Shown here piece by piece: positions 736 to 45,521 of a DNA stretch of 64,000 nt. Where the stretch lies: positions 512,514-576,513 of the forward strand of contig CAVRZA010000001.1 of assembly GCA_963725665.1 (NCBI GenBank), given 5' to 3'. This DNA is from an uncultured Actinomycetes bacterium (GTDB lineage Bacteria; Actinomycetota; Thermoleophilia; UBA2241). Each line of letters begins with the position of its first letter. Position 1 is the stretch's first letter. The notes beneath the pieces are model-generated. The model was given only the letters and a program-made list of their open reading frames with translations. It ran no database searches and was not told where the DNA came from. The position numbers and the translations under genes are program-made.

Positions 736-2000
736 CTACTCGCCTGCGAACACCAGCCCCGCGATCAGCGCCGCCGCCTCCTCTTGCAGCGCCGGGATGG
801 CGTGTGAGTAGGTGTCGAGCGTGATTGAGACGGTCGCGTGCCCGAGGCGCTCGGAGACGACCTTGGGATGCACGCCGGCCTGCAGGGCCAGGGTCGCGTG
901 TGTATGGCGCAGGTCGTGCAGCCTGATCTGTGGCAACATCGCCTTCTTCACGGCCTGGCGGAAGTAGCGCGAGACGTCCTCGGGGTCCAGAGCCTCGCCG
1001 TTCTCGAGCGTGAACACGAGCCCCGATTCGACTCCGGCCTCCTCCCATTCACTCTGCTCGTCGAGCTGGCGCTGCGCCTGCGCCTTCAGGACCTCGACGG
1101 TCACTGGGTCGAGGGCAATGACGCGGCGGCCCTTGGCCGTCTTGGGTTCGCTCACCACGACCTCGTTCTTGATGGGGATGAGGGCGCGGCGCACCTAGAG
1201 CCGCGCTTTCTCGAGGTCGACGTCGCTCCAGCGCAGGCCGAGGGCCTCGCCTCGTCTCATGCCCGTCATCGCGATCAAATGCCAGAGGGGATGGAGGCGG
1301 TCGTCCTTCACTGAGTCCAAGAACGCCTTGAGCTGCTCCTTGGTCCAGGTGCGCATCTCCTTGGTGCCGTCGCCCTTCTTGCACGGTGGGTCGGCGGCGT
1401 CCAAGGGGTTCCTGGAGATGTGACCCCACCTGACGGCGTCCTTGCAGGCCTTGTGGAGACAGGCGTGGACGTGGTTGATGGTCATGGGGGAGAGGCCCTT
1501 CTTGCCGTTCTTCTTGCCGCTCTCGGCGAGCTTCGCGTAGAGGGCGTTGACCTGACTGCCGGTGAGCTTGGCCAGCTTCAGCGCACCGATGTGGGGCACG
1601 ATGTGGTAATCGACGTGCTGCACGTAGGAGTTGTAGGTCGAGGGGCGGATGGTGGCCTTTACGGCCGGCAGCCACTCCTTGGTCAGGTACTCCTTGACCG
1701 TCATCTTGGTCGGCGGCCGGTAGGTCTACTGTTCGACGGCGACGAGCAGCTTGTTCATGGCCGCCTGGCACTCCTTCTCGAGGGCAAAGCCGCCCTTGAT
1801 GGCGCGGCGGCGCTCGACGGTGTCGGTCAGCTCACCACCGCACCTTGGGCAGTTCTCTTTGGGTTTGCGCTCGACCCAGTATCGCTTCCTGCAGGCCGGG
1901 CAGCGCTGGGCGTCGTGCATGCCGATGTCGACGATGTACTCCCAAGAGCCGGGATCGCCCCGTCACGCTGCAGCACGAGCGTCTGGCCGCGCGTGCCACG
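736..2000 (-). pseudogene. Tyrosine recombinase/integrase (phage/ICE type), disrupted
   Basis: ORFs 1726-1920, 1195-1704 and 736-1194 share one frame, separated by TAG stops at 1726-1728 and 1195-1197. Motifs TGMRRGEALGLRWSD, PKT, HDLRHTHAT, LGH and LDTYSH are present. The N-terminus has CPAC…CPRC and an apparent frameshift upstream of ~1950, so the start is uncertain. Confidence 0.9.
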
Positions 2001-2329
2001 TTCCTCCTGTGGCTCGCGTTTGTGCGACCGGGACTCGCTGAATCGGCGTTTCCCCGCAGACTTCGGGCTTGTGATCGCGCGCTCCAGCCTGGGCACCTCT
2101 TGGCACACGTGCCTGCCGGTCATCCACTGGGCGGAGATTCGACCACGTCCACGCTTGACACGCGTTTCACAACAGCGGCGTAGTACGGACCGCCATGGGG
2201 TGAGCAGGGTCGAGGTCGGATCCCCTGGGAGCCCCGCAGTGCCTCCGACGGACCGGCACGCCACGCCATAGTGACCACTCCTACGCGGGCGCCTCGGCGA
2301 GAACGAGGCGAACTCCAAGGAGGAGTGGA

Positions 2330-3559
2330 ATGCCACAGATCAACACAGGAGACACGGCGTTCGTCCTGATCTGCGCCGCCCTCGTGGCGCTGATGACGCC
2401 GGGGCTCGCCTTCTTCTACGGCGGGCTTGTCAGGAGGAAGAACTTCCTCGCGATCATGATGCAGTCGTTCATCTCGATGGGCGTCGTGACCACGATCTGG
2501 GTGTTCTTCGGGTACTCGCTCGCGTTCTCGGGCAACGTTCTCTCCGGAGGGCTCGGGAACCTCGACTGGGCGGCGCTGACGAGCGTCGGCCACCTGCCCG
2601 GCCCGTGGGCGCCGAACATCCCGGCGCAGGCGCACTTCGTCTACCAGGAGATGTTCGCCATCATCACCCCGGCGCTCATCACCGGCGCCTTCGCCGACCG
2701 GGTGAAGTTCAAGAGTTACCTCTGGTTCCTCATCCTCTGGAGCGTCATCGTCTACATCCCGTTCGTGCACTGGATCTGGGGCGGCGGCTGGCTCATGCAG
2801 CACGGCGTGCTCGACTTCGCCGGCGGCGCCGTGGTGCACATGAGCGCCGGCTACGCGGCTCTGGCCTCGGTGTTTGTCGTCGGCCGGCGCCACTTCGGGC
2901 CCGGCGAGCGCGGCCTGCCGCACAACGTGGCCTTCGTGGCCCTCGGCACCGGCCTGCTCTGGTTCGGCTGGTTCGGCTTCAACGCCGGTTCGGCGCTGGC
3001 CGCCAACGGCATCGCCGCGCAGGCCTTCGTCAACACCGACATCGCCGGCTCGATCGCCATGTGCACCTGGCTCGCCTTGACCTGGCGGCGTGACGGCAAA
3101 CCCAGCCTCGTCGGCGCCTTGACGGGCGCCGTCGCCGGTCTCGCCTGCATCACTCCTTGCGCCGGCTACATCCCGACCTGGGCTTCGTTCATCGTCGGCC
3201 TCGGGGCGGGATCGCTCTGCTACTCCGCCGTGATCTTCAGGGAGCGGATGAAGTGGGACGACGCCCTCGACGTGTGGGCGGCGCACGGCGTCGGCGGCAC
3301 GCTCGGGATCATCCTGCTGGGCGTCTTCGCTCTCAAGTCCGTCAACCCAGCCGGCGCCGACGGCCTGATCACGGGGAGCTTCCACTTCTTCGGCTGGCAG
3401 CTGATCACCGTGGTCGTGGTGGCGGGCTACGCCTTCGTGGCCACGTTCCTGATCCTCAAGTTCCTCAACCTCTTCGGCTCTGTGCGCGTGCCCGATGCCG
3501 TCGAGCTCAAGGGCCTCGACGAGACCGAGTTCGGCGAGTCCGCATACGACCTGACGTAA
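2330..3559 (+). CDS. amtB: Ammonium transporter (Amt family)
   Basis: MTPGLAFFYGG, DFAGGAVVH, WFGWFGFNAGS, DDALDV…HG motifs; AAGGAGG RBS. Confidence 0.95.
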   Translation: MPQINTGDTAFVLICAALVALMTPGLAFFYGGLVRRKNFLAIMMQSFISMGVVTTIWVFFGYSLAFSGNVLSGGLGNLDWAALTSVGHLPGPWAPNIPAQAHFVYQEMFAIITPALITGAFADRVKFKSYLWFLILWSVIVYIPFVHWIWGGGWLMQHGVLDFAGGAVVHMSAGYAALASVFVVGRRHFGPGERGLPHNVAFVALGTGLLWFGWFGFNAGSALAANGIAAQAFVNTDIAGSIAMCTWLALTWRRDGKPSLVGALTGAVAGLACITPCAGYIPTWASFIVGLGAGSLCYSAVIFRERMKWDDALDVWAAHGVGGTLGIILLGVFALKSVNPAGADGLITGSFHFFGWQLITVVVVAGYAFVATFLILKFLNLFGSVRVPDAVELKGLDETEFGESAYDLT

Positions 3560-3698
3560 GGACGGGAGGGCGCGGCGGCGGCCGGAGGAACCGGCCCGCC
3601 GCGGCGCACCACCGACGAGGCCTGCGACTCAGGTCGCCTGCACGAGCAGGACCAGCCGGCAGGGAGTGGTCGGCCGAAGCCGATGGCCTGACGATGAC

Positions 3699-3737
3699 GG
3701 CACGGGGCGCGGAAGCTGGCTTCCGCGCCCCGTGCCC
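3699..3737 (+). terminator. GC-rich hairpin downstream of amt
   Basis: ggcacggggcgcggaagc-tg-gcttccgcgccccgtgcc is a long perfect inverted repeat. Confidence 0.55.
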
Positions 3738-3799
3738 GATTTCGGCTAGCGGCGGAGGTCCCCTTGGCTCTGGCTGAGCTCCGCGCCGGTCTGCCCTTG

Positions 3800-4001
3800 C
3801 TGACACGCTGCAAGAAGTGGCGGCGGCTCGGAGCGTAACCGCTGCCCAGGTGGCGCTCGCCTGGCTGCTGAAGCGAGACGATCATGTGATCCCCATCCCG
3901 GGAGCGACGAGGCGGAGAACTCAGGCACCCTCTCGTTGGAGCTCAGCGACGAAGAGTCTGCTGCCATCGACCGGGTATCGGCGCCGACGCCGACCAGGTA
4001 G
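3800..4001 (+). pseudogene. Aldo/keto reductase C-terminal fragment
   Basis: VTAAQVALAWLL…VIPIPGATR, then after a frameshift EN…LELSDEESAAID; no N-terminal part. Confidence 0.7.
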
Positions 4002-4078
4002 CACCACCGAGGGGCCCTCGAGCCCGTCCTGAAGAGCTGGGGCGGCAAGTAAGGAGGGCTGGCCGAGGCACGATCCCT

Positions 4079-4240
4079 CTACTTGTTTGCGAACACCGGC
4101 CCCGCGATCAGCGCTGCCGCCTCCTCCGGCATTGCCGGGATGGCGCGCGAGTAGGTGTCCAGGGTGATGGAGACGGTGGCATGCCCGAGGCGCTCGCTGA
4201 CGAGCTTGGGAAGCACGCCGGCCTGCAGGGCAAGGGTGGC
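4079..4240 (-). repeat. Integrase 3'-end remnant R2
   Basis: Diverged copy of 736-900 encoding ATL.LQAG…ERLGHATVSITLDTYSRAIPA…AAALIAGPVFANK*. Confidence 0.9.
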
Positions 4241-5022
4241 AAGTCACGGTTTGGGCGCCGACGACGGCCGAGCAGGCGGAGGCGCGATTGAACGAGATCA
4301 GGGCGTCGTTAAGGGATCTCGGGCTCGATGATGACGCCAAGCTCGCCGACTGACGCATGGAGTCGGGATCCGCCCCCGCATACGCAGACTGCCTTCCGAC
4401 ACAGCAGCGGCCGGCATGGACAGTGTGTGAGCTTTGCGTCCACCTCCAGCCCTGGGTTGAGATTGCCTGTTCTCTAGCGCCGGTTCTCTGCGTCCCGAGG
4501 TTAAGGGGCCACGTTCCCGGACTCCGTCCCCCACTCGCGGTCTTTGTGGGTTGCGGCCATCGGAGTGCCATGTGGTGTGGGCGCCGGCAAGTGTCGGCAG
4601 GGGCCGGCTTCGATGTGAGGTCGTCGAGATGAGTGGCGTCGGCATCGCGTCGGCGCAGTCGCCAGACTGCGCGCATAACGCGACGTTGTGACAACTCTTC
4701 AGGTTACGTGAACCTGTGACGCCAGCTCTGCGTGTCGCCGCTCAGGAAACGGGAATTCCTTTGTGAACCCTTAGACCGCTTTGTCACCCTTCACGCCTGA
4801 CCGCGCTCCATGCAGCACTCCTCCTTGGAGGGAGGGTGGCTACGCTGCCGGCTCGAGACGGTTACATAAGACAGTCGCCCTCCCGAGCCTCCCTCTGGTT
4901 GCTGTCACACTCGAGTTGTACAGTCGGCCTACAGGCATGAGGGGGATCAGGGGGGGATCGCTTGGAGCACCTATCATCTGACGTGGAATCCCGATCGCTA
5001 CGGCTGGGATGACCTAGTTGGC

Positions 5023-5526
5023 GCTGCGAGCGGATAGACAGTCGCGCCCCTTTCCTGCCTGTCCTTTCGGGCGTACAGTGGCGCCGTCGACAAGGGGGGG
5101 CTCATGGACAACTGGATCCTGTGGGACGACCCAACGAACGAAGACCCGGTCGGTCGCGCTGCCTCCTGCGACAGGCAACTGCGGTACTACCTCGGACAGC
5201 GCGTCTTCGACTTCATCCCTGCAGCGCACGAAGATCCGGATACTACGCACACGCTGGTCGCAGGGTACATCAACCTAACGCTCAGAGAGTGGCGCTCGCT
5301 GGTCGGGCGCGACGATGGCGTGCTGACGTTCAGACAGCCGGACGACCCCTACGAGAAGACGTATATCTTAGAGATCCCAGCGGACCCCAACGTACCCGAC
5401 GACCGGGGGGAACTCAATAGAATCGCCAAAGACGCGGCCGTCCGCCGACTCTTCCGCCATGTGCAAGCGGAACTAGTGGACAGCAACTAACCCCGAGCGA
5501 GCTGGGGCGGCCGTCGGCGTTCTGGC
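5023..5526 (+). repeat. ~500-bp unit, copy 1 (copy 2 at 23690-24195)
   Basis: Near-identical sequence from gctgcg.gcggatagacag to tcggcgttctggc. Confidence 0.95.
5104..5490 (+). CDS. Hypothetical protein, 128 aa (duplicated)
   Basis: G-rich RBS; identical protein at 23772-24158. Confidence 0.7.
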   Translation: MDNWILWDDPTNEDPVGRAASCDRQLRYYLGQRVFDFIPAAHEDPDTTHTLVAGYINLTLREWRSLVGRDDGVLTFRQPDDPYEKTYILEIPADPNVPDDRGELNRIAKDAAVRRLFRHVQAELVDSN

Positions 5527-5638
5527 CCGCAGATCCTCATGCTGTTCACAGCGGCTCTCCGAAAGATGGGGAGTCGGGTCAGCGCCCCAGGCATACGGGA
5601 GCGTACGTCGTCGTGCGACGGTGCAGAGGGGAGAGCGC

Positions 5639-7909
5639 ATGCCTGCGAAGGTGCAAGGCGAACGCGGCGAGTTGACGCCATTGCCGGCCGCCCAACGCGA
5701 TGCGGCCGCGGTCGTGGCCGACGCCGTAGCCCACGACCGCGGCGCGCTGGACGAGTGGCAGGCGAAGGCGCTGCTGGCCGGCTACGGGATCGCCGTCCCC
5801 GAGGGCGGCGTCGCGCGCAGCGAGGACGAAGCCGCGGCCATCGCCCGGCGGCTCGGCGGTCCGGTGGTCGTCAAGGCCGTCGGGCCGCGCATCACCCACA
5901 AGACAGATCGCGGCCTGGTCGCCCTTGACCTCTCCGGGGACGAGGCCGTCCGGACCGCCGCTCGCTCGCTTCTGGCGCTCACCGAAGACCAGGACGCTGT
6001 GCTGCTGGTAGAGCGGATGGTCCGGGGAGCGCGCGAGCTCATGGTCGGCATGAAGCGCGATCCTCTCTTCGGTCCGGTCGTCGTCTTCGGCGTCGGAGGG
6101 ATCTTCACCGAGGCTCACAAGGACATCGCGCTCGGCGTGACGCCGCTGGACGACCGGGACATCGAGAGCATGCTGACCGGGATCAGGGCGAGCGCGCTGC
6201 TCGACGACTTTCGTGGCCTGCCGCCCGTGGATCGCGCATTGTTGGCCGGCGCCATCCGCGCGCTCGCGCGCATCGCCGAGGACCATCCCGCCGTGACAGA
6301 GATCGACGTGAACCCCCTCATCGTGGAAGACGCGACGCCGGTGGCCGCCGACGCGCTGGTGATTCTCGATCCGGCGGGGGAGGGCGGCGCGTCCGCGTCC
6401 GCCCCCCTCCCACCTGTCGCCTCGCCCCCCGATCTGACCCCACTGTTCGCGCCGCGCGCCGTCGCGGTCGTCGGCGCCTCGGACGACCCTCTCAAATGGG
6501 GCGGCTCCCTCCTCCTCAACCTCATCGACGGCGGCTTCACCGGGGCCATCTATCCCGTGAACCGTCGTGGCGGCACGGTGTGCGGTCTACCCGCCTTCCG
6601 CAGTGTCGCGGAACTGCCGGAAGCCCCGGACCTAGCGCTGGTGACGCTGGGGGCCACCCAGGTGAACGCTGTGGTCGAGCAGTGTGGGGAGCGCGGGATC
6701 CCCGTCGTGCTCGTCGTGGCTGCGGACTACTCGGAGGCGGGAGAGGCGGGAGCCGCCGCGGAGGCGGAGCTGGCCCAAACGGCGCGGACCTCGGGCGTCA
6801 CGCTCATCGGCCCCAATTGCATGGGGCTGATCGCGACGCACAGCCGGCTCCACGCGGTCGGCTTTCTGGAGTTGCGGCCGCAGGCCGGCAGCCTGAGTGT
6901 CGTCTCCCAGTCCGGCAACATCGGGGTACAGCTCGTCGCCGCAGCCGAGCGGCGCGGCATCGGCATCGACAAATACGTGACGGTCGGCAACGAGGCGAGC
7001 ACGAGCGCGCTTGACGTGCTCGACGCGCTGCGAGACGACGCGCAGACGGCCGCCGCCCTCGTCTATCTCGAAGGAGTCGACGACGGCCGCCGTTTCCTCG
7101 ACGTCATGCGCCGCACCACGCGGCAGAAGCCGGTGGTGGTGCTGCGCGGCGGCCTGACGGAGTACGGCCGTCGCGCCGCCGCATCGCACACCGGCGCCAT
7201 GGCGGGCGCGGCCGACGTCTTCCTGGCTGCGGCCCGCCAGACCGGCTGCCTCGTGCGCACGGGCCCCGACGAGAGCCTGGACCTGGCGCTGTGCCTCACC
7301 ACACTCCCGCTGCCGCCGGGCCGCCGCGTGGCGATCATGACGCTCGGTGGAGGCTGGGGCGTGCTGGCGGCGGACGAGCTGGCCCGTAACGGCCTCGAGC
7401 TGGCCCTGTTGGAGCCTCACGTCCTCGCTGAGCTGGACAAGCTCCTGCCCGGCTACTGGAGCCGCAACAACCCCATCGACCTCGTGGCATCCATCGGCCC
7501 GGACCTCGCAGAGCGCACGCTGACGCTGCTCGCTGAGAGCGAGGCGGTGGATGCCGTCGTCGTGCTCGGTGTGCTCCACAGCCCGTCCACCGGCTGGACG
7601 TCAGACGGCGCCGCGCCCGCCGCCGGCGGACAGGGCGCGCCCGGCCGCGACCGCTTCAACCCTGCCGAGATCGCATTTCTCGAGCGCGTGACCACGCTCA
7701 TGGAGAGGACGGGCAAACCGATCGTCAACGTCCCCCTACGGGCGCTCGAGGTCGCGACCTTCCCGGGCGGCGCGCGACACGATCCGGTCATCCTCTACTC
7801 GCCGGTCGCCGCGGTACGCGCCCTCGCCGCCATGGCCTGGTACGGGGAGTACGTCGCTGCCCAGGTCGCTCCTCCGCCTCGCCGACGCGCGAAGAAGTAT
7901 CCGCGATGA
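5639..7909 (+). CDS. Acetate/acyl-CoA ligase (ADP-forming) family, ATP-grasp domain N-terminal
   Basis: N-terminal THKTDRGLV…GPVVVFGVGG…EIDVNPL; C-terminal VAVVGAS, IGPNCMG, SQSGN and ASHTGAM (phospho-His). Confidence 0.9.
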   Translation: MPAKVQGERGELTPLPAAQRDAAAVVADAVAHDRGALDEWQAKALLAGYGIAVPEGGVARSEDEAAAIARRLGGPVVVKAVGPRITHKTDRGLVALDLSGDEAVRTAARSLLALTEDQDAVLLVERMVRGARELMVGMKRDPLFGPVVVFGVGGIFTEAHKDIALGVTPLDDRDIESMLTGIRASALLDDFRGLPPVDRALLAGAIRALARIAEDHPAVTEIDVNPLIVEDATPVAADALVILDPAGEGGASASAPLPPVASPPDLTPLFAPRAVAVVGASDDPLKWGGSLLLNLIDGGFTGAIYPVNRRGGTVCGLPAFRSVAELPEAPDLALVTLGATQVNAVVEQCGERGIPVVLVVAADYSEAGEAGAAAEAELAQTARTSGVTLIGPNCMGLIATHSRLHAVGFLELRPQAGSLSVVSQSGNIGVQLVAAAERRGIGIDKYVTVGNEASTSALDVLDALRDDAQTAAALVYLEGVDDGRRFLDVMRRTTRQKPVVVLRGGLTEYGRRAAASHTGAMAGAADVFLAAARQTGCLVRTGPDESLDLALCLTTLPLPPGRRVAIMTLGGGWGVLAADELARNGLELALLEPHVLAELDKLLPGYWSRNNPIDLVASIGPDLAERTLTLLAESEAVDAVVVLGVLHSPSTGWTSDGAAPAAGGQGAPGRDRFNPAEIAFLERVTTLMERTGKPIVNVPLRALEVATFPGGARHDPVILYSPVAAVRALAAMAWYGEYVAAQVAPPPRRRAKKYPR

Positions 7910-10119
7910 TCAAGATCACGATCTATGGCCGCGGCGGCCGTGGCGGCGTGACGCTGGCCAAGCTGATCGCGGCCGCGTACTTCCTGCGTGGCAGGTATGT
8001 CCAGGCCTTCGGCCGCTACGGCGCGGAGCGCGCCGGCGCGCCGGTCCAGGCGTTTGTGCGCGTGGACGACGAGGAGATCACGGAGCACTATCCCGTCCGC
8101 GAGCCCGACCACGTGATCGTGCTGGACGCCGGCCTCATCGCGCCAGAGGCGGCCCAGGGGATGGACCCTCGGGGATGCATCGTGCTCAACACCCCGCTGC
8201 CGCCGGGCGCCTTCGAGAACGTCTTTCCCGGGCGCAACGTGGCGACCCTCGATGCGACGGCGATCGCCGTGGACAACAGGCTGGGGACGAGGGCTTTGCC
8301 CATCGTGAACACCGCGCTGCTCGGGGGTGCCGCGGAGATCCTGGGATTGTCGCTCGCCGACGCCGAGGCCGCGATCGCGCACCTCGGCCTGGGCGAGCCC
8401 AACCTGAGGGCCGCGCACACCGCGTACGACAGCATCCGCCGGGCCCTCTTGCCGGGGATCATCGTGCCGGTCGCCGCACGCCGCCCGGCCGGCAGAGCGG
8501 CGAGCATGTTCGACGAGGACATCGGCGGCCCGCCGGCGGTCCACACGGGCTCGTGGGCCACCCGTATCCCTGCCAGCGCGGCACTGACGCCGCTCTGCAG
8601 CGACGGCTGCCCGGCCGGCAACGACGTGCGGGGCTTCGTGCAGGCGATGGCGCAGCGAGACTACGAGGCCGCACTGAAGACCATCCTTGCGACCTCGCCC
8701 TTCCCGGGGACCTGCGGGCGCGTTTGTCCGGCGCCGTGCATGCAGGCGTGCTCGCGCGGCCAGCACGACGAAGCCGTGAACATCGGCGAGCTGGAGCGCC
8801 ACATCGCGGCTCGCGCGCCCTGGCCTGAGCCCACGCGACCGACTCGCCCCGAACGTCTGGCCGTGATCGGCTCAGGCCCCGCCGGCCTCAGCGCCGCGTA
8901 CCAACTCGCCAGGCTCGGCTATCCCGTGACCGTGTTCGAGGCGGGCGACGAGCTCGGCGGGCTCCTGCGCACCGGGATCCCCGCGTACAGGCTGCCCCGG
9001 GAGGTCATCGACAGCGAGATCGCCTTCATCCTTGCGCACGGCGTGCAGGTCCGCAGCGGTCACCGCGTGTCTCGCTCCCGCCTTGTCGAGCTGCGACGCG
9101 AGTATGGCGGCGTGGTCGTGGCGACGGGGCTGCAGAAGCGGCGCACCGCCGGCCTCGGCGCCGACGACCCTCGTGTGCTGCGGGCGCTCGATTTCCTCGA
9201 CAACAGCCGCACCCGGCCGCCGGACCTCCGCGGGCAACGCGTCGTCGTCGCCGGCGGCGGCAACACGGCGATCGACGCAGCTCGCGTGGCGCTGCGCCTC
9301 GGCGCCCAGGACGCGCTCGTGGTCTACCGGCGCACGCGCGCCGAGATGCCCGCGATCGCCGAGGAGATCGAGGAGGCGCTCGCCGAGGGCGTCCGCATCG
9401 AGCAGCTGGCGGCGCCTCTGCGACTGGAGGAGGCCGGTGATGGGACTGCGCTGGTCTGCCGGCGCATGACCCTCGGCAAGCCCGACAAGTCGGGACGACC
9501 GCGTCCCGTTCCGGTCGATGGTGACGACGGCTTGGCGGAGTTCCGCTGCGACACCGTCCTGCTCGCGCTCGGCCAGGCGCCGGACGGCCGTCTCTTGCCG
9601 GCAGGCTCGGTGCTCGACGAGGAGGACCTGCTGCCCGGAGCTGAAGACGCACCGGCTTGCACTGCGGGCGATCTGGTCGGGTCCGAAGGCACGGTGGCGG
9701 CGGCCATCGGCGGCGGGCGCCGGGCGGCATGGCGCCTGCACGCCGCCCTGGGCGGCGTCGAGGCGCCCTCACTCCCGGCGCCGCTGGTCGATGCCTCCGT
9801 CCTCACGTTCCGCGACGTCCCTCACGTGGCCATGGCCAGGGGCAGGCTGCGACGGCCCAGCTCGCGCAGGGCGAGCTTCCTCGAGGTGCGCCGGGGCCTC
9901 AGCGACCAGCCGGGCCGGGAGACCGCCTATGAGGAAGCGCAGCGCTGCTTCAGCTGCGGCGCCTGTACGGCGTGCGGGGACTGCGTCGTCTACTGCCCCG
10001 AAGGCATCCTCACTCACGTGGGCGACACCAGCTGCACGATCGACGAGGACTACTGCAAAGGCTGCGGGCTGTGCGTGGCACAGTGCCCGCGCAGCGCCCT
10101 CGCGATGCTGCCGACATGA
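7906..10119 (+). CDS. Fusion: 2-oxoacid oxidoreductase gamma subunit + GltD-like FAD/NAD(P) oxidoreductase + 2x[4Fe-4S] delta domain
   Basis: GRGGRGGVT…YGAERAGAPV (gamma); CGRVCPAPC, GSGPAG, GGGNTAID (GltD-like); C-terminal CxxCxxCxxxCP twice. Confidence 0.9.
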   Translation: MIKITIYGRGGRGGVTLAKLIAAAYFLRGRYVQAFGRYGAERAGAPVQAFVRVDDEEITEHYPVREPDHVIVLDAGLIAPEAAQGMDPRGCIVLNTPLPPGAFENVFPGRNVATLDATAIAVDNRLGTRALPIVNTALLGGAAEILGLSLADAEAAIAHLGLGEPNLRAAHTAYDSIRRALLPGIIVPVAARRPAGRAASMFDEDIGGPPAVHTGSWATRIPASAALTPLCSDGCPAGNDVRGFVQAMAQRDYEAALKTILATSPFPGTCGRVCPAPCMQACSRGQHDEAVNIGELERHIAARAPWPEPTRPTRPERLAVIGSGPAGLSAAYQLARLGYPVTVFEAGDELGGLLRTGIPAYRLPREVIDSEIAFILAHGVQVRSGHRVSRSRLVELRREYGGVVVATGLQKRRTAGLGADDPRVLRALDFLDNSRTRPPDLRGQRVVVAGGGNTAIDAARVALRLGAQDALVVYRRTRAEMPAIAEEIEEALAEGVRIEQLAAPLRLEEAGDGTALVCRRMTLGKPDKSGRPRPVPVDGDDGLAEFRCDTVLLALGQAPDGRLLPAGSVLDEEDLLPGAEDAPACTAGDLVGSEGTVAAAIGGGRRAAWRLHAALGGVEAPSLPAPLVDASVLTFRDVPHVAMARGRLRRPSSRRASFLEVRRGLSDQPGRETAYEEAQRCFSCGACTACGDCVVYCPEGILTHVGDTSCTIDEDYCKGCGLCVAQCPRSALAMLPT

Positions 10120-10132
10120 GGAAGGACGCGAG

Positions 10133-11308
10133 ATGACGAGAGCCGTCGTCACCGGCAACCAGGCCGCCGGCCACGCGCTCGTCGCGGCCGGCGAAGCCAA
10201 CCGCGCCGCCCGCGGCTGCGGCGGTGGCTGCTACCCCATCACGCCTCAGACCGAGATCATCGAGAACGTCATGGCGGCGCGCTTCAGCAAAGGGAGCTTC
10301 GTCGCCGTGGAATCGGAGCACAGCGCCATGGCGGTCTGCATCGGCGCCTCGCTCGCGGGAGCGCGCTCCTTCACCGCCAGCTCCTCCAACGGACTCCTGT
10401 ACATGACGGAGAACGTCTTCGCTGCCGGACTGGCACGCCTGCCCATCGTCATGGTGGTGTCCAATCGCACGATCGGTCCGCCGTGGAACATCTGGGCCGA
10501 CCACGGCGACAGCCTCGCCCTGCGCGACGCACCCTGGCTGCAGCTCTACTGCGACTCGCATCAGGACCTGGTGGACACCACCCTGCTCGCCTTTCGCGTC
10601 GCCGAGGACCCGCGCGTGCTGCTCCCCGTGATGGTGACCCAGGACGGCTTCCTCCTCTCGCACACCAGCATGGTGTGCGACCTCCCGTCGCAGGATCTCG
10701 TGGACGACTACCTGCCCCCGCTCGACCTGGCGCTGCGGGCGCGGGCCGACCACCCGCGCACCTACGGACAGATGATGAGCCCGCGCGAGACGCAGCGGCA
10801 CCGCGAGGAGATCCAGGCGGCGATGGAAAGGGTGCCCGAGGTGCTCGACGAGGCCGGCGCGGAGTTCGCGCGTGTCTTCGGCCGCCGGCCGCGCGGCGCC
10901 TTTGAGGCGCAGCACACTGCCGACGCCGACACGGTACTCATCGCCTCGGGCACCACGGTGAGCACGCTGCGCAGCGTCGTGGAGGCGCGCCGCAGCGCCG
11001 GCGAGAAGGTCGGGCTGGTGCAGCTCAAGCTCTTCCGCCCGTTCCTCAGGGACGAGCTCTCGCGCGCGATCGGCAGCGCACGGCGCGTGGCCGTGCTCGA
11101 TCGCGACCACTCGCCCGGGTCGGGCGGCGTCATGTGGAATGAGATCGCGACCAGCTTGAGGGAACGACCCGACGTGCTGCTGCAGGGCTACATCGTCGGG
11201 CTCGGCGGCGGCGAAGTCGACCCGCCGCTCATCGAGCTTGTCCTCGACGACCTCGCCGGCCGCGAACGCGCAGACGCGCCGGTCTTCTTCCCACAGGAGG
11301 TGACCTGA
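10133..11308 (+). CDS. porA: Pyruvate/2-oxoacid:ferredoxin oxidoreductase alpha subunit
   Basis: YPITPQTE, VESEHSA, TASSSNGL, DGFLLSHT, KLFRPF. Confidence 0.9.
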   Translation: MTRAVVTGNQAAGHALVAAGEANRAARGCGGGCYPITPQTEIIENVMAARFSKGSFVAVESEHSAMAVCIGASLAGARSFTASSSNGLLYMTENVFAAGLARLPIVMVVSNRTIGPPWNIWADHGDSLALRDAPWLQLYCDSHQDLVDTTLLAFRVAEDPRVLLPVMVTQDGFLLSHTSMVCDLPSQDLVDDYLPPLDLALRARADHPRTYGQMMSPRETQRHREEIQAAMERVPEVLDEAGAEFARVFGRRPRGAFEAQHTADADTVLIASGTTVSTLRSVVEARRSAGEKVGLVQLKLFRPFLRDELSRAIGSARRVAVLDRDHSPGSGGVMWNEIATSLRERPDVLLQGYIVGLGGGEVDPPLIELVLDDLAGRERADAPVFFPQEVT

Positions 11309-11310
11309 CC

Positions 11311-12216
11311 ATGGCGACCTCCCTGCCAGCGCCCGGCACGGCGCCCCGCCCTCACATCCTTCGCCCGGACAGCACCAACTGCCCCGGCTGCGCGATGTCG
11401 GTGGGCCTGCAGTGGCTCAACGAGGCGCTCGGCGCGGCGACGCCGACGCTGGTCATCCCGGCGTGCTGTGCCGCCGTCACTCCCGGGGCCTTTCCCGCCA
11501 GCGCCTACAGCGTTCCGGCCATTGAAACCACCTTCGCCAGCGCCGCCGCCGTGGCGACGGGCATCGCCCGCGTGCGACAGCTGAATGGGGAGGCCGACCC
11601 CACGATCTGCTGGGCCGGCGACGGCGGCACCTATGACATCGGCCTGGCGACGCTCTCCGCCGCCGCCGAGCGCAACGAAGATGTCCTCTACATCTGCTAC
11701 GACAACGAGATCTACGGCAACACCGGGGGCCAGCGCAGCGGCGCCACGCAGCGCGGCGCCAAGACGACCACCACCCCGCGCGGCAAGGCCGAGACCAAGA
11801 AGGACATCATGGCGATCATGGCCGCGCATCGCGTCCCTTACGCAGCGACGCTGTCGCTCGCCCACCGTGACGACTTTCTGCGCAAGATGCGTTTGGCTCT
11901 GGGCATGCCGGGCTTCCGCTTCCTGCTCATGCTGTCGCCCTGCCCGGCGGGCTGGAAGTCGGATCCCGCCGAGAGCGTCGAGCTCGTCCGCCTCGCGGTG
12001 GCCTGTGGCCTCTTCCCGCTGTACGAGGTATTCGACGGCGAGCGCTACCGCATCAACGCGCGCGCCGACGACACGCCGCTCGACGACTACTTGGGCCGAC
12101 AGGGGCGCTTCCGCTCTGTGGCGCCGGCCCTGGACGATCTGCGCGCCCAAATGGAACGCGATTGGGCGCGCCTCGATGGGCTGGCGCGGGCATTCCCGGC
12201 GGAGGCCCCCGCGTAG
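11311..12216 (+). CDS. porB: 2-oxoacid:ferredoxin oxidoreductase beta subunit (TPP-binding)
   Basis: CPGC, GDGGTYDIG…DNEIYGNTGGQRS, SPCPAGW. Confidence 0.9.
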   Translation: MATSLPAPGTAPRPHILRPDSTNCPGCAMSVGLQWLNEALGAATPTLVIPACCAAVTPGAFPASAYSVPAIETTFASAAAVATGIARVRQLNGEADPTICWAGDGGTYDIGLATLSAAAERNEDVLYICYDNEIYGNTGGQRSGATQRGAKTTTTPRGKAETKKDIMAIMAAHRVPYAATLSLAHRDDFLRKMRLALGMPGFRFLLMLSPCPAGWKSDPAESVELVRLAVACGLFPLYEVFDGERYRINARADDTPLDDYLGRQGRFRSVAPALDDLRAQMERDWARLDGLARAFPAEAPA

Positions 12217-34822: not shown

Positions 34823-34985
34823 CAAGGGAGGGGTGTGACGATAGGCTCGGCGGCTACCGACCATGACCGAGTGATTCCGGCGTTTCTGCCCCCCAGGACC
34901 CTGATGCAGATACGCCGGATTCGTCCGTCCGTGGCGCTGCAGTCGGCCCTAGGCGTATCGTGCCCGTGAAGCGGTCAAGAGCGAG

Positions 34986-35879
34986 GTGGCGCGCGAGATG
35001 AAGCTTGAGGAGTGGAAGAAGGCCGTGGTGCACCTTGAGGCCGCCGCTGACGAGGCGACCTTCGAGGAGAGGATGGCGAGTCCGCTCCTCGTGGGTCGCG
35101 ACCTGCGATTCGGCGGCACAGCCCTCTACGTGAGGGACGGCGAGAAGCGTTACCTAGTCACTGCACGCCACGTACTCACTGACCCGGAGGTCGCCGCCCG
35201 GGGCCTTCCCGACCTCGCCGCCCGCGACCTGTCTGACGAGCAGCAGCGCAAGATCATGGATGGCTGGATCTTCGGGGTAGTCTTCCGCGTGCCGGGATTG
35301 GACGAGTTCAAGTCGAATCCCACGGCGACACCGGAGTTCCTTATGGACCTCGGGGCAGGCGACCCGCGGACGGCTCCCTATTCGTTCTCCAGCCAGTACA
35401 TCGATCTCGCGGTCATCTCGTTCAATGGCCAGAGCTCGACGGCTACTGGGAGGTTCGCAGCCGACCTGGACCGTGCTGGCTATCATGCTGTGCCCCTTGA
35501 GCAAGTCGGGGACGAACCCACCGCCGAGGGCGCAGAGATCTTCTCCGTCGGCTTTCCAGCCGCCTCCGTTCTCGGGGAACGAGATCTTCACCCAGCGCAA
35601 GCCTACTGGGCTTCGAAGTTCGTGTCTCTCCCGGTGTTCGCGTTCGGGCGAGTGGCGATGCTTCATTCAGGCCTCGACTCGTTTTGGGGGGATATCAGCA
35701 TCTACCCCGGAGCCGGCGGCGGCCCGGTCGTACAGGACGACCGGCTAGTCGGCATCGTCTCTGCGCCGGCGAGCGTCGAGGACGTCAGGATTCCCTATGC
35801 ACGCATCACCAAGGCTAGGCACATCAGGGCGCTGATCGAAGAGCAAGATCGAAAGGACTCAGGCGAGTCTGGGTTGTGA
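34986..35879 (+). CDS. Trypsin-like peptidase domain protein (nucleophile motif altered)
   Basis: LVTARHV, DLAVI, GFP, YPGAGGGPV…LVGIV. Confidence 0.75.
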   Translation: MAREMKLEEWKKAVVHLEAAADEATFEERMASPLLVGRDLRFGGTALYVRDGEKRYLVTARHVLTDPEVAARGLPDLAARDLSDEQQRKIMDGWIFGVVFRVPGLDEFKSNPTATPEFLMDLGAGDPRTAPYSFSSQYIDLAVISFNGQSSTATGRFAADLDRAGYHAVPLEQVGDEPTAEGAEIFSVGFPAASVLGERDLHPAQAYWASKFVSLPVFAFGRVAMLHSGLDSFWGDISIYPGAGGGPVVQDDRLVGIVSAPASVEDVRIPYARITKARHIRALIEEQDRKDSGESGL

Positions 35880-36467
35880 ATCGCCGGCGCGCGATCGCAC
35901 CCAGAAACCGAGGCTGCTGCCAGCTTCAGGTGTAGCGCTTCGGCTTTCGGCCCCGAGGCTAGTCGAACACGGGGCCTCGATACGGCGCGCCCTTCGCCTT
36001 GCACGGCTTGCAGAGCACCCCGAATCGCTGGCCCACTTTGACCACGGTGAGTCGTGAACGGGACGACACGATGTGCCGAGAGCCGTACCCGCCGTGGCCG
36101 GGGCAGGTGAGTCCGCAGGCCAGCCGCCACCGGAACAGCACACGTTCGATGACGGGCCTGGGGATGCGGTGAGCGGGGTTCGGGCAATGGAGCACGCCGC
36201 AGGTGGAGCAGGGCGGATCCGGCGTCCAGGAGGTCACGGGAGAGCTCCTTCCTCTAGGTATTCCTCGATAGCATAGCCGAGAGGACTCTGGCGGCGGCCG
36301 TCTGCGAGGATCGCCTTCCTCCGACACGCACTCGGCCTGTCTGATAGACACACCCCATTGCCGACATCTTGCCGACGGGCAGCATCGGCGCATTTGCGGC
36401 CCGTTTCGTGGTCTCGTCTGCACAATCGGGGAAGCCTCTGCCTAGTAGCACGGGGCGACACGGAGAG

Positions 36468-36863
36468 ATGATGACCGCAAGCGCACCCGCATCGCCGCGC
36501 AGGCATCGACCGCAGCTGCCCTGGTTCTTCGCCTGGGTGGCGGTCGGAGTCGGTCTCGCTCTGGGGATCTCTGCTCTCGGCATCTTCGCCGTGCCGCTGG
36601 CCCTGCTGGTGACCATCTTGCTGATCGTGCGCCATCACGCCGACCGTTCGGCCCTTGGCGTCCCTGTCGGGGTGGGGCTGCTCGCGCTCTATGTGGCCTA
36701 CGTACAGCGCAAGGGGCCGGGTACGGTGTACTGGCACACGGCCACGGCGAGCGGTGCAGAACAATACCTCGACCCGCGCCCCTGGCTGGTCGCGGGCCTG
36801 CTGCTCGTCGCTGTCGGCTTCGTTGCCTTTCTCTGGGCCCAGCGCCGCTCCGCTGGAGGCTAG
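36468..36863 (+). CDS. Hypothetical membrane protein
   Basis: About four hydrophobic segments; ends ~34 nt before remnant R10. Confidence 0.7.
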   Translation: MMTASAPASPRRHRPQLPWFFAWVAVGVGLALGISALGIFAVPLALLVTILLIVRHHADRSALGVPVGVGLLALYVAYVQRKGPGTVYWHTATASGAEQYLDPRPWLVAGLLLVAVGFVAFLWAQRRSAGG

Positions 36864-36897
36864 GAGAGGCGGTACCTGCAGACGCTGAGCGTCACGC

Positions 36898-37033
36898 CTG
36901 TCGGCGAACGCCAGCTCCGCAATCAGCGCCGCCGCCTCCTCCTGCATCGCCGGGATGGCGTGCGAGTAGGTGTCGAGCGTGATCGCGACGGTGGCGGGGG
37001 CGAGGCGCTCGGAGACGACCTTGGGGTCGATGC
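36898..37033 (-). repeat. Integrase 3'-end remnant R10
   Basis: PKVVSERLAPATVAITLDTYSHAIPAMQEEAAALIAELAFAD. Confidence 0.95.
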
Positions 37034-39286: not shown

Positions 39287-39456
39287 CTTCTGCGCAGACC
39301 TTGAGGTGCGTTCTGGTGTCGACCTGTGTCCGGGGACGTAATGCTGGCTGACAATCGAACGCCTGAGCACGGCCAGGTACTGAGCCTGTGCAGAACCTTG
39401 GACTGTGCAGCACCATTGCGTCCAGAGGAGCACCGTCCGTCACGTCTTCTGCATGA

Positions 39457-39501
39457 TTCCTAGACCTGGTGTCGTAGGTCCGATTCCTACCGGGGGCACC
39501 A
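39457..39501 (+). pseudogene. tRNA-Arg(CCT) 3'-half remnant (att-like)
   Basis: ttCCTagacctggtgtcgtaggtccgattcctaccgggggcaCCA: T-stem gtagg/cctac and CCA end; no 5' half. Confidence 0.7.
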
Positions 39502-39540
39502 GCTTTCCCCTGAGTATGGCTCGATCGTTCCAACGCTTCC

Positions 39541-44599: not shown

Positions 44600-44782
44600 G
44601 TGAGGCTCGAAGATCTGCTCGGCAAGCACGTCCGCTACAAGGGCGAGGAGGGGCACGTCGTGGAGGGGCACTCCGGCGAGCGGGCATCGGTCGTGGTGAG
44701 CGTCCGCGCCGCGGACGACGTGGCGCGCCGGAACGTGACCGTGCCGGAGCGCGAATGGGGGGAGCTCGAGCTCCTCGACTAG
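44600..44782 (+). CDS. Small hypothetical protein, 60 aa
   Basis: GGAGG RBS plus GTG; GC3-rich codons. Confidence 0.55.
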   Translation: MRLEDLLGKHVRYKGEEGHVVEGHSGERASVVVSVRAADDVARRNVTVPEREWGELELLD

Positions 44783-44826
44783 GATCTTAGGCGAGTGAGG
44801 GCCGCGCCTGAGCCGCTGACGTTGCC

Positions 44827-45042
44827 CTACGCCGCCTCGTCCAAGAGCAGGAACAGGTGCTCTCGCTTTGAGTAGCGGTGAACGCTGCCGCAGCGAGGGC
44901 AGCGATGAACTGTGTCGCAGTCTTCGAGCTCCACAAAGACGTCCGGCGACAGCTGGGTCGACGTGACGAAGAACGCGCCACAGCCGCCGTTCTTGCACTC
45001 GACTCCCAGGAGGTGGGACATGCGGCTCTGCTCAGGCAGCAT
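44827..45042 (-). CDS. Small zinc-ribbon protein
   Basis: CKNGGC…CPRC. Confidence 0.55.
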   Translation of the reverse strand: MLPEQSRMSHLLGVECKNGGCGAFFVTSTQLSPDVFVELEDCDTVHRCPRCGSVHRYSKREHLFLLLDEAA

Positions 45043-45328
45043 CCTTCGCCTCCTGCGCCGTAACGACGGGGCGATTCGGAAGCGCGTGCAGCAACGCGCG
45101 ATGGCGGCCCCAGGAGGGCGTCGCCGCGCAGGCGGAGCAGACCGCTGCGGCACGTCCATCCAGCTTCACTTGAAAGACCTTCTCTCCGAGGATGATCGTC
45201 TCCCCGCAGTGGTCGCAGATGCGCGTGCCCCAGAGCCGTTCGAGCACCTCGGCTTCGCGTCGAGCTGCGTCGCGCCCTTGGTCTGCGATTGCTGGTTCGG
45301 TGCCTGAGAACGCCCTCTGATCTCCCAT
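45032..45328 (-). CDS. Small Cys-rich protein
   Basis: CDHC…CSAC; overlaps the next gene. Confidence 0.55.
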   Translation of the reverse strand: MGDQRAFSGTEPAIADQGRDAARREAEVLERLWGTRICDHCGETIILGEKVFQVKLDGRAAAVCSACAATPSWGRHRALLHALPNRPVVTAQEAKDAA

Positions 45329-45384
45329 GATGCCCTTCCACGCCCGCGCCGCGGCTCCTACCTCGCGACATGTTGCCGCTCAGT

Positions 45385-45411
45385 TACCCCTCTCGCGAGT
45401 CCTGCCAAACC
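45385..45411 (-). promoter_or_regulatory. SigB/SigF-type promoter candidate
   Basis: Minus strand GGTTT-N17-GGGTA, ~56 nt upstream of ATG at 45328. Confidence 0.5.
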
Positions 45412-45488
45412 AGCACGACTCACGTACGAGGACTACGGTAACCGGCTCCAAAGGCCGTCGCACAGCCTCATGGCGATAGGGAGACGCG

Positions 45489-45521
45489 CACCAGCCCCGT
45501 GATCAGCGTCGCCGCCTCGTC
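45489..45521 (-). repeat. Integrase 3'-end remnant R11 (very short)
   Basis: caccagccccgtgatcagcgtcgccgcctcgtc encodes DEAATLITGLV. Confidence 0.6.

Follow-up and report, generated by a model that had tools for sequence, protein, structure and literature searches.

The DNA of an uncultured soil actinobacterium from a Thermoleophilia family contains a two-tier gene-collecting locus. Its first tier is an island-accretion hot spot of the classical kind at a tRNA-Arg(CCT) gene, complete with attL/attR and attP arms of its own. In the second tier, dozens of small modules are bounded by copies of the 3' end, or tail, of the gene for the islands' own tyrosine integrase, which is presumably also the enzyme of this tier. 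The tail-bounded modules look like an undescribed mode of gene collecting. The window is the whole stretch of 64,000 nucleotides that was analysed; w denotes window coordinates, C1 contig coordinates and q the coordinates of the integrase query, which comprised the integrase locus (window 700–2000, minus strand; integrase stop at q1263–1265) and was compared with the window by blastn. Eighty-nine genomes of the family were used for comparison.

The tRNA-Arg(CCT) hot spot

The tRNA-Arg(CCT) gene (C1 468624–468699) forms one end of an 83-kb hot spot, and displaced tRNA 3' fragments lie on the plus strand at C1 495675–495753, 503854–503925 and 551970–552025. The last of these belongs to the outermost attR (Table 1); it matches positions 32–87 of the tRNA query at 95%, and no P' arm follows it. 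The tRNA copies of the hot spot are otherwise flanked by conserved attP arms. The genome thus holds four tRNA copies, the gene and three fragments, versus 29 integrase tails. Among 11 fetched stretches, the tRNA-Arg(CCT) gene stands at the array end in five, and the gene or fragments reaching from the anticodon loop to the 3' end occur in 10, in all 10 on the strand opposite to the integrase copies. A P arm (~100 nt) and a P' arm (~90–130 nt) are conserved in most aligned islands of eight genomes. The locus therefore has what characterises a tRNA-island array: an intact tRNA gene with co-oriented 3' fragments, attP arms and an island integrase. Between the integrase tail and the tRNA identity block with its arms are 0.5–4.3 kb of unrelated DNA.

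The integrase and its tails

The integrase gene INT2 is a single frame interrupted by two in-frame TAG codons (w1195–1197 and w1726–1728). The pieces of the pseudogene match PF00589 (5.7e-16) and Phage_int_SAM_3/PF14659 (2.9e-10), and a further PF00589 match encloses one TAG, so that both the catalytic and the core-binding domain of a phage/ICE-type tyrosine integrase are found. Its last codons bear a 26-nt tail block with its 3' edge at w746. The system is a fossil in the source genome because all four full-length integrase copies in the whole genome are pseudogenes. Unbroken integrases of the same family are present in related genomes, and their C-terminal extensions differ between copies; one intact relative is 30–39% identical to Bacillus and Paenibacillus phage/plasmid integrases over 85–100% of its length. 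The islands of G014 and G024:C4 contain the family integrase as their sole full-length PF00589 match.

Besides the self match, the query has 10 partial matches in the window, all on the minus strand (Table 1). The initial annotation had described a degraded integrase with about 10 partial 3' copies, and every one of its coordinates agrees with ours to within 10 nt. It had also called the copies co-oriented save for a small inverted piece in its repeat R9; this piece is real but weak and adjoins the copy at 20713, which is R9 if the integrase is counted as R1. Eight of the 10 copies begin at or before q1190 and hence keep the catalytic Tyr codon, as had been said of most; the codon is absent from the copies at w20713 and w45489. 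Also as annotated, no 5' or middle-only integrase fragments were found in the window by blastn. The match at w45489–45522 lies beyond the tRNA-bounded hot spot, where a lower-GC stretch begins.

Table 1. Features of the window. Query positions and identities refer to the integrase query.
Feature	Position (w)	Strand	Match or basis
INT2, full-length tyrosine integrase pseudogene	736–1920	minus	frame reading, Pfam matches
INT2 unit (3,343 bp): tail, ammonium transporter gene, INT2	746–4088	minus	
Ammonium transporter gene	2330–3559	plus	Ammonium_transp 2.7e-114
Integrase 3' fragment	4079–4240	minus	q1104–1265, 86%
10.2-kb module	4089–14255	minus	cargo list, block edges
IS256-family (Transposase_mut) gene, in 10.2-kb module	13005–13982		
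Integrase 3' fragment	14256–14379	minus	q1132–1255, 91%
Degenerate integrase fragment	15605–15673	minus	q1140–1208, 83%; last 47 nt and terminal 26-mer gone
Integrase 3' fragment	16910–17172	minus	q1008–1271, 82%, indels
Integrase 3' fragment, block6	17823–17929	minus	q1152–1258, 91%; edge w17826
Cassette Y (702 bp): tail, glyoxalase-family gene, fragment	17826–18527	minus	
Glyoxalase-family gene of cassette Y	18031–18474	plus	
Integrase 3' fragment	18516–18694	minus	q1089–1267, 86%
Integrase 3' fragment	19327–19463	minus	q1119–1255, 85%
Short integrase 3' fragment	20713–20770	minus	q1198–1255, 83%
16.2-kb module	20713–36903	minus	
Inverted piece adjoining 20713 copy	20792–20818	plus	27 nt, 89%, E=0.066
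Integrase 3' fragment	36904–37025	minus	q1134–1255, 90%
Outermost attR: P arm (~100 nt), then tRNA 3' fragment (w39457–39512)	39357–39512	plus	
Tail-like match, status uncertain	45489–45522	minus	34 nt, q1217–1250, 91%

The array is larger than had been annotated, and the tRNA hot spot had been overlooked. Thirty HSPs define 29 copies, two of them full-length, over 85 kb (C1 473081–558035), on the minus strand throughout. Over the whole genome, the depth of integrase-query matches is 27.9 at q1200–1255 versus at most 2.5 anywhere in q60–1060, and partial matches to 3' ends outnumber those to other parts by 28 to 11 in the genome and by 46 to 4 in the arrays of relatives. The copies are co-oriented in 34 of 34 multi-copy stretches, and 31 of 58 tail-to-tail intervals measure 1.4 kb or less. 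For 12 of 26 source-genome tails the best match is in another genome, which points to serial acquisition.

The terminal 26-mer, allowing up to three mismatches, occurs 23 times in the source genome and is present in 41 of the 89 family genomes, in all of which the reversed control pattern gave no match; chance similarity is excluded as the source of the tail copies. An assembly artefact is likewise very unlikely. The source is a metagenome-assembled genome with 5.04% contamination as judged from marker genes, but the same architecture recurs in independent assemblies of at least eight genomes and in a separate metagenome contig, and the copies are 80–93% identical, hence not collapsed repeats.

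Modules between tails range from 0.4 to 16 kb, and the called genes of the small ones lie on both strands. No tRNA-type att site (tRNA fragment) was found in the INT2 unit. The 10.2-kb module carries genes for an ADP-forming acyl-CoA synthetase, a 2-oxoacid:ferredoxin oxidoreductase-like protein and a TPP enzyme, and the 16.2-kb module those for a sigma-70 paralogue, a cold-shock protein, a GGDEF/EAL/PAS protein, an arginase-family protein, a nucleotidyltransferase, a tautomerase and a trypsin-like peptidase. Cassette Y has a paralogue at C1 499060–500431 and is also present in a strain-level metagenome contig, L112.

The tail block

The conserved part of the tail ends in the 26-nt block GCGCTGATCGCGGGGCTGGTGTTCGC, encoding ..ALIAGLVF-A. 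The tail copies have ragged 5' ends and a common 3' edge two to three codons ahead of the stop, and among 69 aligned sites from eight genomes, conservation ceases after ..TTCGC. A homologous stop codon persists beyond this edge, at exactly codon +3 in 83 of 143 cases, so the sharpness of the edge is partly just that of the gene end. In every lineage, the block is positioned precisely at the integrase stop. Many blocks are merely 27–45 nt long, and 31 of 66 fragments of at least 90 nt contain frameshifting indels; by their sequence, the fragments read as decaying pseudogene pieces.

Among 25 intact integrases, there is no sign of extra nucleotide constraint, synonymous-codon conservation being 0.75 in the last 12 columns versus 0.72 gene-wide; in the fragments, the last 26 nt are only slightly better conserved than the remainder (0.878 versus 0.827). 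Dyad symmetry, a conserved right half-site and hairpins were not found at the tail sites. Folding of the 69 sites with DNA parameters gave mean z-scores of -0.57 and -0.50 for the two strands, with z < -2 in 6% and 9%. The similarity of the block to the tRNA att core is insignificant, 471 of 2000 shuffles scoring as well.

Recombination breakpoints

Homology breaks at the block edge in three comparisons within the genome: C1 498205–498891 with 526772–527459 (98%), 473084–473822 with 500432–501167 (97%) and 503423–503751 with 530329–530657 (95%). In the first, the fragment at w14256–14379 together with 560 bp upstream is the 98% paralogue of C1 498205–498891. Two array segments of the source genome hold the same module order, as after segmental duplication. 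Between genomes, G106:C47 and G105:C13 have integrases that are 75% identical, yet they have 5,566 bp in common at 96.4%, starting at a block; their upstream blocks are unlike each other right up to the edge, and the right end of the common segment lies away from any block.

Contig L112 has a 1.4-kb epimerase cassette in common (1,495 bp at 96.3%) with other neighbours on both flanks, and both breakpoints are block edges. The upstream fragment in L112 has the diagnostic bases of block6 at all sites but one, and the tail has those of INT2; at w17826, the block6 edge, L112 is joined to the INT2 tail instead. It follows from these bases that the source genome has 17,080 bp (w746–17825) absent from L112. 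Both parents are identical over the 38 nt in which the crossover falls, and homologous recombination could therefore be its origin. In assembled contigs of four peat/wetland metagenome runs, there is a depth peak at the w17823 block, followed by heterogeneous sequence and loose ends at w17816–17828; these contigs showed neither a circular form nor an excision junction. One cassette is found on two G001 contigs with the same cargo and a different terminal fragment, which indicates that the array is shaped by deletions as well.

The homology breakpoints lie 0 to +8 nt past ..TTCGC, ahead of the stop at +8 to +10. We conclude that integrase tails are module boundaries. Enrichment of 3' ends only, co-orientation, and presence or absence bounded by repeats had been named in the initial annotation as signs of a cassette platform built through the integrase 3' end; all three are observed, the last as the 17,080-bp difference and as changes of neighbour at tails between strains and genomes. 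Of that proposal, the tail as a real and recurrent boundary stands, and we infer the catalytic step, the integrase acting on its own tail.

Proposed mechanism and alternatives

The reading that we favour, with a probability of roughly 55%, is that a second recombination site overlapping the integrase stop, as in Mx8, stacks autonomous modules together with 5'-truncated non-autonomous ones. Integrative islands of one family have entered the tRNA-Arg(CCT) gene serially, in its 3' half, producing the hot spot out to the displaced tRNA fragment at w39457–39512, and inside these islands the modules are delimited by repeats of the 3' end of the integrase gene itself. The block and the ~7 variable bases after it would constitute the second att site of the island integrase, overlapping the stop codon. 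A circular module (tail, cargo, integrase or remnant, block) could then recombine with any resident block; modules would stack head to tail in a single orientation, and each event would exchange the final residues of the integrase upstream. Modules with a 5'-less integrase could still be moved in trans as long as they retained the block, which would explain the near-exclusive survival of 3' ends. Tail swapping predicts varied C-terminal extensions, and those of the intact relatives do vary. The simple form of the model also predicts a block directly beside the P' arm, and the unrelated DNA found there counts against it. So do the decay of the fragments and their unconstrained block, the stop codon that persists past the edge, the tail sites free of dyad symmetry, a conserved right half-site and hairpins, the L112 crossover in identical sequence, the right end of the G106/G105 segment, the deletions in G001 and the four broken full-length copies. 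The depth peak at w17823 and the tails with their best match in another genome count in its favour.

A possible but clearly less probable explanation dispenses with any site-specific reaction at the tail: both large and small related islands insert serially at tRNA-Arg, their integrases are later truncated, and the tails are passive direct repeats through which homologous recombination deletes, duplicates or exchanges segments. The hot spot is truly a tRNA accretion site, and so the serial insertion of related islands, which the initial annotation had given as its alternative, is also true at this higher level. The frameshifted fragments, the block free of extra nucleotide constraint, the retention of the gene's own stop codon, the L112 crossover inside identical sequence and the repeated module order all speak for decay, as do the islands of G024:C4, with roughly a single integrase or fragment for each tRNA-bounded island, and the tycheposons, for which fragmented integrases in tRNA islands are reported too (10.1101/2020.12.28.424599). 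However, decay of one integrase per island cannot yield 29 tails to four tRNA copies; some 25 deletions would be needed, each losing the P-core-P' junction and sparing the adjacent integrase 3' end. Random deletion, moreover, predicts equal numbers of 3' and of 5' or middle pieces, which the 46:4 and 28:11 ratios contradict. Blocks of 27–45 nt are a poor substrate for homologous recombination, and the dissimilar upstream blocks of G106 and G105 leave no identity tract for a crossover.

It is improbable that the block serves as the recombination site of a different enzyme, be it the Xer recombinases of the host or some unrecognised protein, with the integrase end merely carrying it. The integrase already owns a well-defined tRNA-type attP with arm repeats, which the block does not significantly resemble, and each scanned genome has two Xer-like genes (best PF00589 matches). 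Nevertheless, the arrays are accompanied by no other recombinase gene in the islands checked, where PF00589 matches only the integrase and its fragments, and co-evolution with the integrase is the simplest explanation for a block placed precisely at its stop in all lineages.

We give practically no credence to a true integron, with IntI, attI and attC cassettes. The overall picture of many small modules, a repeated site and a nearby integrase recalls one, and glyoxalase-type cargo, which is common in integrons, is present. Against this, an intact relative, P0001, scored 38.8 bits (cut-off 265) and 22.9 bits (cut-off 435) with the NCBIfam integron-integrase models; any driver is thus a non-IntI integrase, as had been annotated. 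The sites do not fold, cargo genes occupy both strands, and the repeats are located at the integrase gene's 3' end and past it rather than upstream. Together, these features refute the assignment. The label "integron-like" consequently fails on IntI, attC folding, cassette orientation and array position, each of the defining features tested. What the locus has in common with integrons is a functional analogy only, the serial capture of small modules, each with a recombination site, beside a tyrosine recombinase gene; it differs in having its site at the recombinase 3' end and in that some modules carry a whole integrase.

Comparison with known systems

In the accretion of ICEs with cis-mobilizable elements (CIMEs), non-autonomous elements that have kept att sites but no functional integrase stand in tandem with autonomous elements and can be mobilised in trans. 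The att repeat of a CIME is a host-gene or tRNA end, whereas here it would be the integrase's own end; we know of no description of CIME arrays of tens of units.

Tandem tRNA-gene island arrays (Islander-type; Prochlorococcus tycheposons) have an intact tRNA gene at one end and displaced 3' fragments (PMC4383910, 10.1101/2020.12.28.424599). They have in common with the present locus these fragments as direct repeats, an island tyrosine integrase and integrase remnants, newcomers that push older islands outward, and accessory, nutrient-related cargo. Here, in contrast, a second repeat, the integrase 3' end, far more numerous than the tRNA copies, subdivides the islands and marks recombination breakpoints.

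Phage Mx8 has its attP within int, and integration alters the Int C-terminus (PMC6070905, PMC4383910); SSV-type archaeal integrases have attP inside the integrase ORF (PMC8371274, PMC7253208). Both use the in-gene site to target tRNA genes, and integrases of the SSV type are split in two. They resemble our proposal in a crossover region within the integrase coding sequence, so that the int 3' end is rewritten. Unlike in Mx8, the tail is not the site used for tRNA integration, being 0.5–4.3 kb away from the tRNA identity block and without significant similarity to the tRNA in its own block; the integrase here appears to own a separate tRNA-type attP too. Only the last two to three codons would change, and the partner would be another integrase tail copy.

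Copies of the integrase gene

The window ends where its contig does (contig C1 of the source genome G000, 512514-576513). The full-length integrase pseudogene within it, INT2, is a tyrosine integrase gene in a single frame with two in-frame TAG codons, and pieces of it match the Phage_integrase and N-terminal SAM-like domains. Against the NCBIfam models the integrase protein stays below every cut-off, and it is not an integron integrase. Its identity to phage and plasmid integrases of Bacillus and Paenibacillus is 30-39%. Comparison of the integrase locus with the window by blastn returned the ten further 3'-end matches of the initial annotation at the same positions, all on the minus strand, and the inverted piece described there is a 27-nt scrap adjoining the copy at w20713 (w, window coordinate). 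The catalytic Tyr codon is kept in eight of these ten partial copies; the copy at w15605 lacks the last 47 nt of the gene.

Across the whole genome, the same query gave 30 HSPs representing 29 copies, one of them full length in addition to INT2, all on the minus strand of C1. The suspected enrichment of 3' ends is borne out by the query depth, which is 27.9 at query positions 1200-1255 against at most 2.5 upstream of position 1060. Stops or frameshifts interrupt all four full-length copies in G000, of which two are on C1, one on C2 and one on C6; several relatives retain intact copies, which differ in their C-terminal extensions.

Paralogous integrases or fragments are also found convergent with tRNA-Phe on C2 and with tRNA-Arg(TCT) on C8, where the integrase end would be only about 84 nt from the tRNA gene. 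This suggests an ancestral layout in which int directly adjoined attP. Weak partial Phage_integrase matches lie just upstream of the tRNA-Arg(CCT) gene, on the side opposite the array.

Positions of the principal features in G000 (C, contig; w, window coordinate)
Feature	Position	Strand	Remark
tRNA-Arg(CCT) gene	C1 468624-468699		ARAGORN
Partial tRNA copy	C1 495675
Partial tRNA copy	C1 503854
Partial tRNA copy	C1 551970 (w39457-39512)		in window
Integrase copies on C1	C1 473081-558035	-	29 copies
Full-length pseudogene INT2	w736-1920	-
Full-length pseudogene	C1 478166-479397	-
Full-length pseudogene	C2 585531-586725
Full-length pseudogene	C6 269826-271015
Weak Phage_integrase matches	C1 464246-468484	+
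Integrase convergent with tRNA-Phe	C2 578775-586725
Integrase convergent with tRNA-Arg(TCT)	C8 58775-59127
Seven-module island	C1 495753-503854		8 kb, tRNA-bounded
Epimerase-like module	w1-633 and upstream
Segment additional to L112	w746-17825		INT2, ammonium transporter, 10-kb module, copies w4079, w14256, w15605, w16910
Integrase fragment block6	w17823-17929	-
Sigma-70 gene	w21060-22238		99% copy at C3 start
Cold-shock region	w22729-22926		93-95% copy at C3 start
Sigma-70/cold-shock copies	C3 9000-29300
Integrase-tail fragment	C3 6495-6574
Direct repeat	w5023-5526 (C1 517536-518039)
Direct repeat	w23690-24195 (C1 536203-536708)
Transposase gene	w13005-13982		IS256 family (Transposase_mut)
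Low-GC region	w46000-64000		to contig end
Histidine kinase	~w45468-47259		apparently broken
Large-ORF regions	C1 488776-495317; C1 504134-508639		outside window

Island accretion at a tRNA gene

The locus is a textbook case of islands accreting in tandem at a tRNA gene, a process described in sections of PMC4383910; comparable accretion is attributed to tycheposons in parts of 10.1101/2020.12.28.424599. The tRNA-Arg(CCT) gene ends five of the 11 fetched arrays, and partial copies of it, extending from the anticodon loop as far as the 3' end, occur at scattered positions in ten of the 11 stretches, invariably on the opposite strand to the integrase copies. A conserved arm about 100 nt long lies before each tRNA copy, and another, 90-130 nt long, lies after it and carries TTGCCGAC repeats. 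This downstream arm is missing from the copy in the window, which we therefore take to be the outermost attR. In the islands of two relatives, G014 and G024 (contig C4), the integrase under study is the only full-length integrase, and the 23.7-kb island of G014 also contains a DnaB-like helicase, a ParB-like methylase and other mobile-element genes. No conserved gene was found between the tRNA and the first block, where the ORFs are unrelated among six stretches of five genomes. Serial insertion of related islands, which the initial annotation had offered as its alternative, is thus true at the level of the tRNA islands.

Within the islands, G000 has 29 integrase tails for four tRNA copies. 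One tRNA-bounded island consists almost wholly of seven tail-bounded modules and contains no integrase, and 31 of 58 tail-to-tail intervals are 1.4 kb or shorter. The decay of a single integrase per island is therefore insufficient to account for the tails. Random deletion is likewise insufficient, since surviving 3' ends outnumber other parts of the integrase about tenfold.

The window carries accessory cargo with no relation to mobility, namely an ammonium transporter, an acyl-CoA synthetase, an oxidoreductase, two glyoxalase-family proteins, a BlaI-like repressor, a Rieske protein, a sigma factor, cold-shock proteins, a GGDEF/EAL protein and arginases. Of 80 metagenome loci with homologues of the glyoxalase cargo, 79 are without an integrase block; the gene is ordinary outside the lineage. 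The sigma-70 gene and cold-shock region recur on other contigs: nearly identical at the start of C3, in an island-like region that shares this cargo with the C1 array and contains an integrase-tail fragment as well, and in weaker form on C4 and C6. A 506-bp direct repeat (99% identity) is found in two different large modules.

Anatomy of the tail

In an alignment of 69 copies from eight genomes, conservation climbs towards a 26-nt block close to the stop codon and ends after its terminal ..TTCGC. The 5' ends are ragged: the 141 unique copies comprise 36 of full length and 105 partial ones, the latter spanning a continuous range of 31-997 nt with a median near 100. Bases past the edge are variable yet still homologous, an in-frame stop falling exactly three codons past it in 83 of 143 unique copies and within three codons in 98, with 2 and 11 stops in the other two frames. 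The sharpness of the edge is therefore due in part to the poorly conserved last two codons of the gene. The fragments are decaying, as frameshifting indels in 31 of the 66 that are at least 90 nt long attest. Strong extra constraint on the block was seen neither at synonymous sites of 25 intact genes (0.75 over the final 12 columns, 0.72 over the whole gene) nor in fragment identity, where the excess is small (0.878 in the block against 0.827 elsewhere); neither comparison was taken to favour a functional site.

A disguised tRNA core was rejected, local alignment of the block with tRNA-Arg giving just CTGGTG(T)TCGC, a result equalled by 471 of 2000 shuffles. The block shows no excess folding of the kind expected of an attC-like hairpin. 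The tail-like match at w45489, only 34 nt long, lies outside the tRNA-bounded hot spot and was considered as a primordial attB.

Tails as module boundaries and breakpoints

Tails bound the modules and coincide with breakpoints. Paralogous modules in G000 share 95-98% identity as far as the block edge, past which they are unrelated. In the congeneric genomes G106 (contig C47) and G105 (contig C13), whose integrases are 75% identical and whose upstream DNA is about 71% identical, a common segment of 5,566 bp at 96.4% starts at a block; the blocks upstream of it differ up to the edge, and homology resumes about 5 nt past it. The right end of this segment is not at a block.

L112, a strain-level metagenome contig of a close relative found through its glyoxalase cargo and the only informative one of those 80 loci, shares the epimerase-like module with the window (96.3% over 1,495 bp) and is unrelated downstream of that module's own block. 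Upstream, in place of INT2, it has a 107-nt fragment corresponding to block6, with the glyoxalase cassette behind. This fragment is block6-like at all diagnostic bases but one, and its bases past ..TTCGC are all of INT2-tail type, which places the switch point within the last 38 nt, identical in both parents. Relative to L112, G000 has 17,080 extra bases bounded by two tails: the repeat-bounded presence/absence polymorphism that the initial annotation had proposed to look for. Some 340 nt past its own copy of the w14256 block, on the downstream side, L112 also goes over to different DNA.

The sequencing runs identified contained only 8-13% of the sampled words, and four peat or wetland runs were compared through their assembled contigs; joints with sides of 21-38 nt were not counted as evidence. 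Depth peaks at the block near w17823, and at w17816-17828 the contigs branch into heterogeneous sequence. Elsewhere, one cassette occurs on two contigs of a single genome with the same cargo and a different terminal fragment, and the DNA beside the downstream attP arm is variable, 0.5-4.3 kb long and free of blocks.

Distribution among relatives

Of 41 genomes, G000 and 40 relatives, 25 contain matches to the 165-nt integrase 3' end. Its terminal 26-mer, with up to three mismatches, occurs in 41 of 89 family genomes at up to 32 copies per genome, and a reversed control pattern in none of the 89. Copies numbering 164 were located in 65 of 91 fetched stretches, which partly overlap, the same genomes having been fetched twice; co-orientation extends to all 34 stretches with two or more copies. 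Record titles describe the carriers as uncultured Thermoleophilia or Actinomycetota of peat, bog and soil. The best match of 12 of 26 G000 tails is in another genome, which argues for serial acquisition rather than amplification in place. An exact 23-mer search of viral_contigs for a free or viral form gave no matches. Records labelled Candidatus Cryosericum septentrionale and Acidobacteria bacterium (loci L048, L055, L041 and L053) contain integrases with 66-87% identity to the family, reflecting either cross-phylum transfer or mis-binned contigs.

A proposed second attachment site in the integrase gene

We propose that the block and about seven variable bases form a second attachment site of the integrase. 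Such a site would overlap the stop codon, as the Mx8 attachment site does according to passages of PMC6070905. Circular modules, each made up of a tail, cargo, an integrase or its remnant and a block, would recombine with resident blocks; modules bearing remnants would be moved in trans, which may explain why they are over-represented. Each event would alter the last residues of the upstream integrase, whose natural C-terminal extensions do vary, and could tune its activity, by analogy with Mx8. The variable junction bases may parallel the heterologous coupling sequences of Tn916-type elements. We put the probability of site-specific recombination by the integrase at the tail block at roughly 55%. 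The fuller scheme is held more tentatively, at rather less than even odds: a second integron-like tier in Actinomycetota, in which a tRNA-targeting integrase of phage or ICE type would also use its own last codons as an attachment site, stacking, in the interval from its gene to the tRNA, modules of about 1 kb that each contain 27 nt or more of the site, with every capture rewriting its C-terminal residues.

Several observations fit this mechanism poorly, namely the block-free DNA at the attP arm, the right end of the G106/G105 segment, the swapped terminal fragment and the 38 nt of L112. Homologous recombination within those 38 identical bases could have made the L112 crossover, and decay combined with such recombination might explain the tails generally; we regard this as unlikely, though a serious competitor, in view of the 29:4 ratio of tails to tRNA copies and the roughly tenfold 3' bias. 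That some other enzyme acts on the tail site is less probable still, a PF00589 scan having revealed no second recombinase in the islands. The locus works like an integron and is not one, since all integron features tested failed; the integron explanation is accordingly hardly credible, and the label 'integron-like' in the initial annotation fell with it. An artefact is just as implausible.

Site-specific recombination at the block, if correct, would share with Mx8 a crossover inside int, as we infer it here; the locus differs in having a separate attP of tRNA type. It belongs to the known class of tRNA-island accretion, within which module arrays of integrase 3' ends appear to be new; we found no description of such ends as module boundaries in the main texts of open-access papers and preprints. 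To our knowledge, integrons are the only well-understood platform that gathers single-gene modules by site-specific recombination. They rely on folded attC sites and on a single specialised clade of integrases. Should an ordinary island integrase be able to build such arrays out of copies of the end of its own gene, modular gene capture would have arisen on more than one occasion and along a much simpler path. This would explain how the abundant uncultured Thermoleophilia of soil and peat gather genes for transport, redox, stress and regulation, and a site as short as about 35 nt with a cognate enzyme would be interesting as a tool for recombination. Should the enzymatic step be wrong, integrase remnants can still be breakpoints of strain-level variation in gene content, and the locus is of real interest for the biology of mobile elements.

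Further features of the contig

The low-GC region begins just past w45489; its GC content is 55-60%, against 66-74% before it and 68% genome-wide, and its genes include a sulfatase and an AI-2E family transporter, with the histidine kinase at its start. Either the region is a foreign island or the MAG has a chimeric join here. The IS256-family gene appears to be 5'-truncated. Outside the window, island cargo includes three very large ORFs (1,043-1,501 aa), two of which contain internal nucleotide repeats of 72-81% identity.
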